IMG/VR virus record: IMGVR_UViG_2778261160_000004
Strand: one strand, 5' to 3'
Origin: a virus
Taxonomy: Duplodnaviria > Heunggongvirae > Uroviricota > Caudoviricetes
DNA length: 30,200 nt
Below are positions 8,870 to 12,559 of this stretch, piece after piece. Each line of letters begins with the position of its first letter. Position 1 is the first letter of the stretch. The notes beneath the pieces were generated by a model. The model was not told the DNA's origin, searched no databases, and worked only from the letters and a program-made list of their open reading frames with translations. The position numbers were made by a program, and so were the translations under genes.

Positions 8870-9769
8870 ATGATTGATCCACTTATTAGAAACTTACAGA
8901 GTGATATTGCACTACTCCAGCTTTATATCGCGCAACGCAAACAGGCAGGCTTTCATGACATGGAAAGAATAATTGAGTCATTGACCATCTTTATGTTTCG
9001 CGCGCTGAAAATGGGTGAACTGGTAAACATGAATCAGATTAAAGTTAATTTTCCCGCCATTGATTTAGCTGATAATAAAAACATGATAGCAGTTCAAGTT
9101 ACTACGAATGCAAGTCCAGCAAAAATTAAAAAAACTATCGAATCTTTTGAGAAAACAAATGAAATAGGAGAGAGTCTGAAAGATAAATACTCTACTTTAT
9201 ATATTTTTGGTTTTTGTAAAGCCTCAAGATATCTAACTCCAAGTTATTGTAAAATAATCGACCCCAGCTATTTCGTGAATGAACTTTGCGATAAAGCAGA
9301 TGAAGATATGGTCCAGGATATGATTGACGCCATTCGACGCCATCATGATTATACATCATTACATCCATGGAGTGATAAAGATTCACTCGAAATTATACTC
9401 AATATTATTAATCGCAATGCAATAAAACATCGGATGAGTTGCGAAGGCAGTCTGTCTGATATGATCGCTGGTTTAAAAGAAATTAATGAAGTAATTACAA
9501 AAGGAACAATTCAACGTAAGCAACGTTCAAAATCGATATCTGACTTCAAAGATCAAAGCATGGTGAAATTTATGAGAGGTGTAATGGATGATTTGTCTGT
9601 TATTCAAGCCATAGTGAACAAATCTAAAGTTAACCAAGGTGATATGGTTTATATAAGCCATGAAGATATGATTAATATTGATAAATTAAAAGCTAAAATA
9701 GCAAGTGATTCATCAGAGATTGCAAGGCTAAATAATATTGATATAACACTAAATGTTGTTGATTTATAA
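8870..9769 (+). CDS. Orphan cargo protein, possible N-terminal SMEK-like sensor domain; candidate defence/abortive-infection protein
   Basis: 299-aa ORF in visibly AT-rich DNA. N-terminus has the pattern …NFPAIDLADNKNMIAVQVTTNASPAKIKKTIESF… that I associate with SMEK-type domains (recollection, not a search). No catalytic motif recognised in the C-terminal half. Confidence 0.65.
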   Translation: MIDPLIRNLQSDIALLQLYIAQRKQAGFHDMERIIESLTIFMFRALKMGELVNMNQIKVNFPAIDLADNKNMIAVQVTTNASPAKIKKTIESFEKTNEIGESLKDKYSTLYIFGFCKASRYLTPSYCKIIDPSYFVNELCDKADEDMVQDMIDAIRRHHDYTSLHPWSDKDSLEIILNIINRNAIKHRMSCEGSLSDMIAGLKEINEVITKGTIQRKQRSKSISDFKDQSMVKFMRGVMDDLSVIQAIVNKSKVNQGDMVYISHEDMINIDKLKAKIASDSSEIARLNNIDITLNVVDL

Positions 9770-10083
9770 TTGTCGATTTAGCAAAACAGAGAATGCTTTG
9801 AAAATTTCACCGAGAAATATTTATTGTGAACCTCCTTATTGTTTATCGACTTTCACTCTCCGCTCATTGCAGTACTGTCGGAGAAGGCTACTATGTACAA
9901 GAAGCAGCTAACATAAGCGAGCATCACTATTGATATTAGGAAGAGTATATAAAAACTTCATGCTGAACCTTACAAAAGTAGGTAAACCGGCAATGGCCTA
10001 AGTGGCAGGGTCATGTTGATCCGGCACTGCCGAGCTAATAATTAACAAGCAAATCACTCTTTCTAATAATTTGTTGAAATAAA

Positions 10084-10743
10084 CTAAATATGTATATGTT
10101 TACCAACAACCACATATGAACTACCTGCTTTGCTCCATGATTTTATTATTTCTAAATTATTATCTGAGCATATTTTACTTACAGTATCCACATCTAATAA
10201 ACCATAATAGAAAGCATTACGAGAGTTTTGGTATATATACCCATGCAAATGTTTAATACCTCTCTCGTACCTCTTGAAATAAGAACTTTTGTATTGATTG
10301 ACAATCAGTGCTTCACCATCACTCTTTAATAATTCTCTAATCGCACTGAGGACTTTGTGAATTGTGGATTCACATGGAATTGCGGAAAGCACGTTTGCGC
10401 AAAGTATGAAATCATAATGATTTGTTATTTTATCTATATTTTCATAAGAAACGATCTTAGCATTCTTATAGTTATTTATCACGTAATCTGGAATCGTGGT
10501 TTGTACACCTCTGATAATTTGCACTCTTTCTAGTTGTCTTCTCGAATCTAAAAATGTCACAGTTTCAAATTTATTTACTAATTGTTCTGAATATCTAAGT
10601 TTTCCACATCCAAAATCAAGGGCATTGCCATTTTTATTAGTGCTTTCAATCTGTTTACAGAGATAGTTAGATGGCATAGTGTGCGGTTTCGCTGCATTTT
10701 CTGAACGTATGTTTATTCCATTTATTTTGTAATTCAAAATCAA
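10084..10743 (-). CDS. Class-I SAM-dependent methyltransferase-fold protein (not a typical DNA methyltransferase)
   Basis: 219 aa. Motif I ALDFGCGKL, acidic end of beta-2 (TVTFLDS), motif DFILCANVL. No DPPY/NPPY or PC-ENV motifs. Six nt downstream of the membrane-protein gene (operon). Confidence 0.7.
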   Translation of the reverse strand: MILNYKINGINIRSENAAKPHTMPSNYLCKQIESTNKNGNALDFGCGKLRYSEQLVNKFETVTFLDSRRQLERVQIIRGVQTTIPDYVINNYKNAKIVSYENIDKITNHYDFILCANVLSAIPCESTIHKVLSAIRELLKSDGEALIVNQYKSSYFKRYERGIKHLHGYIYQNSRNAFYYGLLDVDTVSKICSDNNLEIIKSWSKAGSSYVVVGKHIHI

Positions 10744-10749
10744 CCTCGT

Positions 10750-11457
10750 TTAAAAAATATTGTTATTGTTAAAGAATTCTTTTATTTTGCTATCAGGTAT
10801 TTGTCTTACTTGGCTTTCTGTTCTTGGTTTAACTGATGCTATGAAAATAAGGAAGTCAAATGCGACAAGAGAAATAATCCACAACCAAAGATTAATTAAA
10901 GAGCCAGTAACAGAGAATATATTTGTTAATTTGGCGATACTTATTATTAAAATAGTAACAAATGCGATTACTGTATGTTCAAAGAAAACCCAAAAGTAAT
11001 AAACTTTGTTCCAGAAAAGTTCAACGTAATGTTTGTCTTTTAACTCTTTAACTTCTGGGTAATACAGTTTACTCATTACCTTGTGAGATTCATCAGTAGT
11101 TAATTTTCTCGTAATGCCTGCAATTTTTGCTAATGGTTTAATAATTAAATGACTATCCCACATCTTCCTTATTCCAATAATTTTTGCTACATTATTATGT
11201 AGATCTAAAGCTCCACTAATTACTGACCAAAAAACTGAAGATGCAATTGGTAATATGCCAAAGGTTAATATCCATTTAATAAATTCCTCGTAGTCTTTAA
11301 CGGGGGGGATATACTTGGCATTAATGCCAACCAATGGCATGTAGCCATAAATGACTAATGATAGGTAAAATATAAATGTAGTAATAAAAGTCGCCTTATG
11401 GAGCATAGGCAACATTTCATTATAACTCTTTGGTGGTTCTAACATTTTACTCTCCAA
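10750..11457 (-). CDS. Integral membrane protein, four predicted transmembrane helices with a roughly 65-aa charged loop
   Basis: 235 aa. Hydrophobic segments at about residues 22-45, 59-84, 151-175 and 180-210. Very AT-rich. First gene of a two-gene operon with the methyltransferase-fold gene. Confidence 0.7.
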   Translation of the reverse strand: MESKMLEPPKSYNEMLPMLHKATFITTFIFYLSLVIYGYMPLVGINAKYIPPVKDYEEFIKWILTFGILPIASSVFWSVISGALDLHNNVAKIIGIRKMWDSHLIIKPLAKIAGITRKLTTDESHKVMSKLYYPEVKELKDKHYVELFWNKVYYFWVFFEHTVIAFVTILIISIAKLTNIFSVTGSLINLWLWIISLVAFDFLIFIASVKPRTESQVRQIPDSKIKEFFNNNNIF

Positions 11458-11886
11458 ACATTCAAAAAAAAGCTAATCTTCTATAATAACGAAATTCAGC
11501 TAGCACAATTAAAGATTAATTGCCACCAATTTCTTGATTTTATAATTTTATCTAAATGTTTTTGATTAATCTAGTCCTAAAAGAAACCTACTGCATAAAT
11601 ATTTATGCTGATGACCCACTCCCTGTTCGTTAACACATAGCAACGTTAGTAATGCATCCTAAGTGATCAATATTTTTGCTAGCTTCATCTGCTCGCTCAA
11701 AGGGAACTAAAATGTTGGCTTGCGTGTGACTTGGCATGTTTAAAGAAGTGCTGGTGGTGACTGGTTGCTGTTTTCCATTTCCACAGAACAAAATCATAGA
11801 AACTATACCCAATAGTTGTATTGAATCACTGACGAGACAGCCTCATATTTATCAGGACTGGTGTACGTCCAATACAGGAGGTTGTG

Positions 11887-11976
11887 GTGCTGGTTCTCAA
11901 ATGTGCGCTGGCTATTGCTGCTGTAATGGCAATTTATTGTCTTGCTGTTGTTCTTATGGATCGCCTTTCTGATTGA
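11887..11976 (+). CDS. Candidate 29-aa hydrophobic peptide (type-I-toxin-like small membrane peptide)
   Basis: Consensus AGGAGG at 11876-11881, GTG start 5 nt downstream, product (M)LVLKCALAIAAVMAIYCLAVVLMDRLSD: one hydrophobic helix and a charged tail. Below the ORF-track length cut-off. Unverified. Confidence 0.25.
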   Translation: MLVLKCALAIAAVMAIYCLAVVLMDRLSD

Positions 11977-12187
11977 TTTCATATTGGCGAGGTAACGGTA
12001 GTTAAGTAGAATGCCTGCGGGTGCTTGAGGCTATCTGCCTCGGGCATGAACACCAAAGGCAGATAGAGAAAAGCCCCAGTTAACATTACGCGTCCTGCAA
12101 GACGCTTAACATTAATCTGAGGCCAATTTCATGCTAGACACATGTAGGTTAGCCTCTTACGTGCCGAAAGGCAAGGAGAAGCAGGCT

Positions 12188-12343
12188 ATGAAGCAGCAAA
12201 AGGCGATGTTAATCGCCCTGATCGTCATCTGTTTAACCGTCATAGTGACGGCACTGGTAACGAGGAAAGACCTCTGCGAGGTACGAATCCGAACCGGCCA
12301 GACGGAGGTCGCTGTCTTCACAGCTTACGAACCTGAGGAGTAA
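12188..12343 (+). CDS. hokD: Hok-family membrane toxin HokD
   Basis: 51 aa: MKQQKAMLIALIVICLTVIVTALVTRKDLCEVRIRTGQTEVAVFTAYEPEE, matching HokD (RelF) as recalled. AAGGAG 8 nt upstream. The ORF-track 70-aa call is an in-frame upstream extension. Confidence 0.85.
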   Translation: MKQQKAMLIALIVICLTVIVTALVTRKDLCEVRIRTGQTEVAVFTAYEPEE

Positions 12344-12350
12344 GAGACCC

Positions 12351-12440
12351 GGCGAGGGAGAAATCCCTCGCCACCTCTGATGTGGCAGGCATCCTCAACG
12401 CACCCGCACTTAACCCGCTTCGGCGGGTTTTTGTTTTTAT
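12351..12440 (+). terminator. hokD 3' stem-loop (GGCGAGGGA-GAAA-TCCCTCGCC, 12351-12372) plus rho-independent terminator (ACCCGC-TTCG-GCGGGT and T-run, 12411-12440)
   Basis: Perfect 9-bp stem with GAAA loop directly after the hokD stop; second hairpin followed by TTTTTGTTTTT. Confidence 0.6.
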
Positions 12441-12559
12441 TTTCAACGCGTTTGAAGTTCTGGACGGTGCCGGAATAGAATCAAAAATACTTAAGTAGCG
12501 CGCAGGGATAAGAGGGATGGTCCCTTAAAGGGGAGAGCTAATTATCCGGAAGGATTCTG

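Follow-up and report, generated by a model that had tools for sequence, protein, structure and literature searches.

A 29-codon open reading frame (ORF) directly ahead of the hok/sok module of a lambdoid prophage is very probably, judging by comparison with its relatives, a real and conserved small membrane-protein gene of lambda-like Escherichia coli prophages that has been missed here by RefSeq. The window, that is the whole stretch of DNA that was analysed, comprises 30,200 nucleotides of an E. coli lambdoid prophage, and the region considered is 100% identical to strain H8. Patterns of variation among relatives show that the frame, its Shine-Dalgarno (SD) sequence and its start codon are under purifying selection. 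We consider it likely that the ORF is a genuine small gene of the lambdoid-prophage backbone and a shortened member of a narrow family of single-pass membrane proteins of 29-34 residues. This family is already in the databases as 'hypothetical protein', with ribosome-profiling support, and is neither a new kind of system nor a sign of a new toxin-antitoxin pair. The features of the region are as follows.

8870-9769, plus strand: SMEK-domain protein gene, its N-terminus matching PADLOC Aga_REase-PNTD1-PNTD2 (E=9e-21)
10084-10743, minus strand: SAM-dependent methyltransferase gene of the cargo slot
10750-11457, minus strand: gene of a 235-aa multi-pass membrane protein, belonging to no family
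11690-11817, no strand: conserved non-coding block, 86-95% identical upstream of hokD in ~2,600 genomes with differing cargo
11736-11972, plus strand: 78-aa Cys-rich frame, rejected as a gene
11821-11849, plus strand: candidate sigma-70 promoter TTGAAT-17-CATATT, predicted only
11861-11871, plus strand: 5'-UTR box GT(G/A)TACGTC(C/A)A, conserved in relatives
11876-11881, plus strand: SD sequence AGGAGG, followed by the 5-nt spacer TTGTG and then GTG 11887
11884-11886, plus strand: first in-frame GTG, which is TAT, GTC, ATC, ATT or GTT in relatives
11887-11976, plus strand: 29-codon ORF with GTG start and TGA stop (11974-11976), product MLVLKCALAIAAVMAIYCLAVVLMDRLSD
11984-12012, plus strand: hok promoter TTGGCG-17-TAGAAT, its -35 beginning 8 nt after the stop of the ORF
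12019-12193, plus strand: hok mRNA leader/sok region (Rfam RF01794, 118.3 bits, E=5e-28)
12188-12343, plus strand: hokD coding sequence, annotated by RefSeq in the identical strain (Pfam HOK_GEF, PF01848, 81.6 bits)
12412-12438, plus strand: hok intrinsic terminator, the first one downstream of the small ORF

The product MLVLKCALAIAAVMAIYCLAVVLMDRLSD has one predicted transmembrane helix and a conserved tail, LMDRLSD. It is hydrophobic at residues 2-24, with a GRAVY of 1.8 overall and of 2.7 for the core (residues 6-24), carries a lysine at position 5, and with 29 residues belongs among small (under ~60 aa) hydrophobic peptides with a transmembrane helix. A preliminary description of the window had noted an AGGAGG 5 nt before a GTG and a 29-aa frame just upstream of hokD, coding for a helix-like hydrophobic stretch with a charged tail, and the sequence bears out each of these points, the tail being DRLSD. 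The automated ORF list begins one codon earlier, at GTG 11884, but the 29-aa reading is the right one, because GTG 11887 is invariant across relatives while the codon before it varies. The SD core GGAG is present in diverged relatives as AGGAGG, GGGAGG, AGGAGA or TGGAGA. An AGGAGG with a start codon 4-9 nt away and at least 25 open codons is found three times in the window, compared with 0.9 times in shuffled sequences. The SD sequence and the ORF are by themselves near chance, and the case for a gene depends on comparative data.

RefSeq has nothing annotated between the gene of the 235-aa membrane protein (10750-11457, minus strand) and hokD. The earlier statement that the ORF is unannotated holds for RefSeq, which has no feature in the identical strain H8 or among the matches listed, but not for GenBank, where some entries carry submitters' names for it, 'hypothetical protein' or 'membrane protein' (GCZ25347.1, APK03751.1).

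The main statistics on coding were restricted to sequences retrieved by DNA, namely BLAST hits and viral contigs sampled via the hok -10/+1 region, which avoids circularity; loci found by peptide pattern were left out because they are biased towards intact peptides. Thirty distinct single-site variants in this set, a small number of independent substitutions, are distributed over codon positions 1, 2 and 3 as 7, 5 and 18. Seventeen of them are synonymous, where 28% would be expected (binomial p=9e-4; most relatives are >85% identical), and none creates a stop in the frame of the ORF. The amino-acid replacements are conservative (A/V/T, V/I, M/V/I/T, D/E/N and R/H). Nei-Gojobori dN/dS against the window is 0.10 for locus L011, 0.19 for L222, 0.24 for L013 and 0.34 for a 34-aa homologue; the value of 0.85 for L003 is uninformative, that locus being barely diverged. 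The other plus-strand frames have 5-8 synonymous variants out of 30, and a synonymous excess is otherwise seen in minus frame 1 only, which shares the same wobble position and has a stop codon. Where flanking DNA can no longer be aligned, the second GTG and the SD core GGAG are kept. The frame is open in ~130 related prophage and phage loci and in all full-length relatives; a lack of conservation of the frame, named beforehand as an observation that would count against a gene, was not encountered. The synonymous excess, the low dN/dS, the conserved SD and start, and a homologue supported by RIBOseq together uphold the earlier proposal of a coding small hydrophobic peptide.

Of 5,426 complete E. 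coli genomes, 2,653 have a module of ~300 bp that is 86-99% identical to the one in the window (about 11690-11995); it occurs also in phages Evi, Tritos, mEp460_ev081 and HannyBb. Every relative inspected for its distribution has the module upstream of hok and quite different cargo to the left, and the ORF therefore belongs to the conserved backbone. Its placement at the edge of a cargo island in the preliminary description was thus correct as to position, but the ORF itself is part of the conserved phage backbone. The cargo slot (8870-11457) lies between a DUF977 gene and the hok module and holds three genes in the window. Relatives hold varied genes in the equivalent slot (NACHT, RelA/SpoT, AbiH, DUF4145, QueH or acetyltransferase genes), which suggests a hot spot for defence or moron genes.

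The right-hand limit of the variable cargo is near 11690, or near 11817 in some relatives. The non-coding block bounded by these positions contains 1-, 2- and 12-nt indels and is missing in L003, L012, L013 and L222; its start in relatives is the cargo junction, marked there by a hairpin, GTCCGCTT-N8-AAGCGGAC. Similarity in the most diverged loci (L003, L011, L012, L013, L022 and L025) is seen only from ~11817 onward, and all six retain TTGAA(T/G), a diverged 17-nt spacer, CATATT, the GT(G/A)TACGTC(C/A)A box, GGAG, GTG and an intact ORF. The leader is gone in L222, where a 30-codon ORF with its own GGAG and GTG is found 50 nt after a co-directional ORF6N-family gene. The ORF is dispensable, because it is truncated by the cargo junction in 11 of ~41 loci with this type of hok promoter and its start is lost in L010. 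Junctions inside the ORF leave its last 6-8 codons (…ATGGATCACCTTTCTGATTGA) before the hok promoter (L106, L103, L110, L111, L115, L116, L150, L162, L181, L199 and L201), and in the L106 type an AAGGAG by chance precedes the ATG of the remnant codons.

The 29-aa peptide matches no Pfam, NCBIfam or PHROG model (E<=10). A word-indexed search returned 32 clusters, all from Escherichia or Shigella and named 'hypothetical protein', 'membrane protein' or 'putative membrane protein'; the exact 29-aa sequence is present on 146 contigs and one variant on 650. A 34-aa relative, MSDDISLAMEGALAVIAVVGVYCLVVFLMDRLGN, turned up at the equivalent position in a sample of contigs anchored on hok. The two forms can be aligned without gaps over all 29 residues at 48-55% identity, their genes are 73% identical in DNA, in frame, and tblastn of the 34-aa relative matches the window at 11872-11973 (E=1e-6). 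With dS ~1 between diverged members, synonymous sites are saturated and protein similarity is still detectable. As the SD sequence of the window matches codons 2-4 of the longer form, the 29-aa form is apparently an N-terminally shortened derivative.

In a collection of phages, tblastn of the 34-aa protein recovered just the 29-aa type, with weak E-values, and a joint 29/34-aa profile searched against 1.84 billion representatives gave 26 hits, exclusively of these two types. Three diverged members, P0101, P0103 and P0107, are of unchanged length and share the pattern AIYCL..V.L(M/W)(D/E)R(L/I), ending in (S/F)(D/E). Among GTDB genomes, one per species, members were found in Escherichia and Shigella only, apart from three metagenome bins under other genus names that probably contain contaminating DNA. 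By these searches, the family of 29-34-residue proteins is confined to lambdoid prophages of Escherichia and Shigella. The Qin prophage of K-12 has no homologue of the ORF, and relE abuts hokD there. A literature search with the peptide sequence and accession gave no match in main texts.

The 34-aa gene carries the PGAP annotation WP_001278450.1 in 669 genomes, and in Sakai prophage Sp6 it is ECs_5710, located directly before mok/hok. Its sequence is contained in that of XECs145 (comparison with the data of PMC5597208), one of 465 intergenic ORFs of O157:H7 Sakai with a convincing RIBOseq signal (Hücker et al. 2017, PMC5597208). For XECs145 in LB, a transcriptome RPKM of 79.1, a translatome RPKM of 346.1, an RCV of 4.35 and a coverage of 0.99 are reported (PMC5597208, S2 Table), and in BHI an RCV of 1.14, the thresholds of that study being an RCV of 0.25 and a coverage of 0.5. 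One transmembrane helix and an inner-membrane location are predicted in its tables. These data show that XECs145 is transcribed and efficiently translated in growing lysogens; they concern the homologue and not the 29-aa allele, and read mapping can be blurred where prophage copies are nearly identical.

Downstream, the start of the hok transcript at 12019 is taken from the Rfam model, and the in-frame mok-type ORF of hokD begins at 12131. The hok/sok element is the only real Rfam element and does not overlap the ORF. A sub-threshold isrK match (25.7 bits against a gathering score of 50) at 12352-12433, over the hok 3' end and terminator, is probably a mere resemblance to a terminator. There is no credible terminator from 11976 to the hok terminator at 12412, so transcripts of the ORF would extend into hok. 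Apart from the hok promoter, TTGAAT-17-CATATT is the sole promoter-like site on the plus strand; it scores 8/12. Both of its hexamers are kept despite the diverged spacer in the six most diverged loci, and its -35 is absent or replaced in ~17 of 99 loci, in E. albertii L019 and in L222. Transcription of the ORF would come from early-operon read-through, possibly also from this weak promoter of its own. In loci with co-directional genes upstream, the ORF would belong to an early rightward operon.

A hok leader is found within 120 nt of the ORF in 85 of 86 loci, which had themselves been found via the peptide. The unbiased sample of 118 lambdoid contigs anchored on hok includes 29 with an intact 29-aa ORF, 11 with an ORF truncated at the cargo junction and 21 with the 34-aa type. 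A further 45 carry only another small hydrophobic ORF, which is either a 27-aa one, MTWPEAFTTVGIAMAVALVVYSICRWG (20 contigs), or a 32-aa one, MEKIDVLILMFGHINALFLGVFMAVMCIEYWR (25 contigs). One of four kinds of small hydrophobic ORF is therefore located right before the hok promoter in 95 of the 118. The 27-aa ORF (MIWPEAFAITGVAIAIDFLVYVICRWG in O157:H7) has a strong SD sequence, AGGAGG, is unannotated, and varies in sequence with its peptide pattern kept (L113, L128, L161, L135, L013 and L220, at 2390-2473 in the last). It also occurs in four loci of the 34-aa type, and is found ahead of the 29-aa ORF (L013) and of the 34-aa gene (L220). The 32-aa ORF fills the slot before the hok promoter in L114, L101, L108, L120, L152 and others. 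Pfam, NCBIfam and PHROGs searches with the 27-aa, 32-aa and 34-aa types gave nothing above noise. O157-type loci have a perfect 22-nt palindrome, CGATATGGGAATTCCCATATCG, after the stop of the 34-aa gene and before the hok promoter (L220, ~2622-2643; also L130, L146, L182 and others). It is not followed by a T-run on either strand and might be a site of protein binding or an atypical terminator.

The arrangement raises the question of whether prophage hok/sok modules have three parts, with the small membrane protein modulating Hok, giving immunity or timing Hok-assisted phage release. We regard this as unlikely. The strict adjacency in 85 of 86 loci, the regular occurrence of one of the four kinds of ORF in the hok-anchored contigs and the missing terminator between ORF and hok all agree with such a partnership, as does the reported role of hokW-sokW in the release of phage Sp5 (PMC8621323), a paper in which no upstream ORF is discussed. 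However, the synteny may be plain conserved gene order of the nin region, and hok loci outside lambdoid phages, whether plasmid-borne or chromosomal and including hokD of K-12, have no such ORF upstream. The ORF is moreover intact in an arrangement that lacks hok (L011, L015 and L223), which occurs in 338 complete genomes and in two diverged lineages. Similarity in these loci (L011 1498-1760; L015; L223 ~2500-2714) is lost within the hok -35, TTGATTACATACTGGC, and returns with a piece of the hok leader, CATTAATCTGAAG. A DUF1971 gene is adjacent in L011, L223 and L224, and host genes are adjacent in L223, which suggests a decayed prophage. The fact that nearly every lambdoid hok locus is preceded by a small hydrophobic ORF nevertheless offers a cheap lead on how prophages use hok/sok.

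It is very unlikely that the ORF is non-functional and open by chance or hitch-hiking, its DNA conserved through proximity to the hok promoter or through recent divergence. An SD sequence and an ORF of this size are expected about once per window, and most copies are 86-99% identical; constraint at the level of DNA, however, would not be expected to produce the excess of third-position and synonymous variants or the low dN/dS, and protein similarity extends to members whose synonymous sites are saturated (dS ~1). Some loci are truncated or without the ORF and there is no obvious consequence, but the ORF also persists where hok and its promoter are gone, and the homologue XECs145 is translated.

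The preliminary description had further assigned the peptide to the class of type I toxins, which finds no support in similarity to toxin families, in antisense signals or in the behaviour of the freely translated homologue. A membrane-depolarising peptide curbed by an unrecognised antisense or divergent small RNA is, in our view, highly improbable. The small size, the one transmembrane helix and the short charged tail would fit, and many small hydrophobic peptides are toxic if overproduced, although toxicity of that sort would not be specific. The prophage location beside a bona fide type I module also speaks for a toxin, as such loci sometimes cluster. A single helix with a short charged tail is, on the other hand, common to many non-toxic small membrane proteins. 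Against this, no Pfam, NCBIfam or PHROG family was matched at E<=10, while the neighbouring Hok scores 81.6 bits, and the SD sequence is strong, optimal and unsequestered. An RCV of 4.35 for XECs145 in growing cells is the opposite of what a silenced toxin mRNA would give, and the upstream block is absent in L003, L012, L013 and L222 though the ORF persists.

The search for an antisense promoter that the preliminary description had proposed covered 11780-12080 and gave no minus-strand promoter that scores 8/12 or more and reads into the ORF, a result that applies to canonical promoters and leaves room for non-canonical ones; two weak minus-strand candidates are located upstream of the ORF and point away from it. 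No minus-strand terminator was found in 11400-12500, and folding was no better than that of shuffled sequences on the plus strand (MFE z -0.27) or the minus strand (z +0.66). A cis-acting antisense RNA to the ORF was accordingly rejected, there being no promoter, terminator or structure for it. A divergent or trans-acting antisense RNA from the upstream block was also rejected, since the 13-nt imperfect repeat GTGGTG(A)CTGGTT shared with the block, through which such an RNA might in principle pair with the start region, is not significant (reached in 83 of 1000 shuffles) and several loci with the ORF are without the block. A hairpin enclosing the SD sequence, in which the 5'-UTR box would pair with codons 5-8 (RNAalifold), is weak, lacks covariation and is disrupted in 2 of 7 sequences.

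That the real gene is the 78-aa Cys-rich frame or a 59-aa minus-strand frame (11803-11982) can practically be dismissed: both are open in the window, but only 5 and 6 of 30 variants, respectively, are synonymous in them, neither has a family match, the 59-aa frame gains a stop, and indels of 1, 2 and 12 nt disrupt the 78-aa frame in L005, L008, L009 and L010. L003, L012 and L013 do not have the 78-aa frame at all, and it has no ribosome-binding site, as had correctly been stated before.

As a small gene of the prophage backbone, the ORF would close the rightward early (nin) region, as its final reading frame ahead of the hok/sok module. Its peptide would insert into the inner membrane via residues ~2-24, and probably acts through the helix motif (A/G)(I/V)YCL and the tail LM(D/E)RL(S/G)(D/N), its most conserved parts; the conservation of motif and tail points to binding of a membrane partner and not to non-specific membrane damage. 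About half of the complete E. coli genomes carry the module, and recognising a selected gene in it corrects the RefSeq annotation. A prophage-specific family of small membrane proteins is now defined and open to testing.

Compared with known systems, the ORF resembles type I toxins (Hok/Gef, Ldr/Fst, TisB, ZorO, Ibs, ShoB and DinQ) in having fewer than 60 aa, one hydrophobic helix, a short polar tail and a location on a mobile element. It differs from them in that it lacks family similarity, small-RNA signals and a structured leader that would block translation, its SD sequence being exposed. Small single-pass membrane proteins of E. coli known from ribosome profiling are mostly regulators or subunits of larger membrane proteins. 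The ORF is like them in length, in its one helix and strong ribosome-binding site and in having been overlooked by automatic annotation; no named member is related to it in sequence, however, and its own family is restricted to lambdoid prophages. Also close to the ORF is its homologue ECs_5710/WP_001278450.1/XECs145. RefSeq annotates this 34-aa form and not that of the window, and the RIBOseq support (PMC5597208) is for the 34-aa form only. The window form lacks its five N-terminal residues and starts at GTG. In the window the palindrome downstream of the stop is missing, and the -35 region of the hok promoter is unlike that of the 34-aa loci. The single transmembrane helix, the YCL motif and the LMDRL tail are nonetheless common to both forms, and in O157:H7 prophages such as Sakai Sp6 the 34-aa gene is likewise co-directional with hok and located immediately before its promoter in the rightward early (nin) region.
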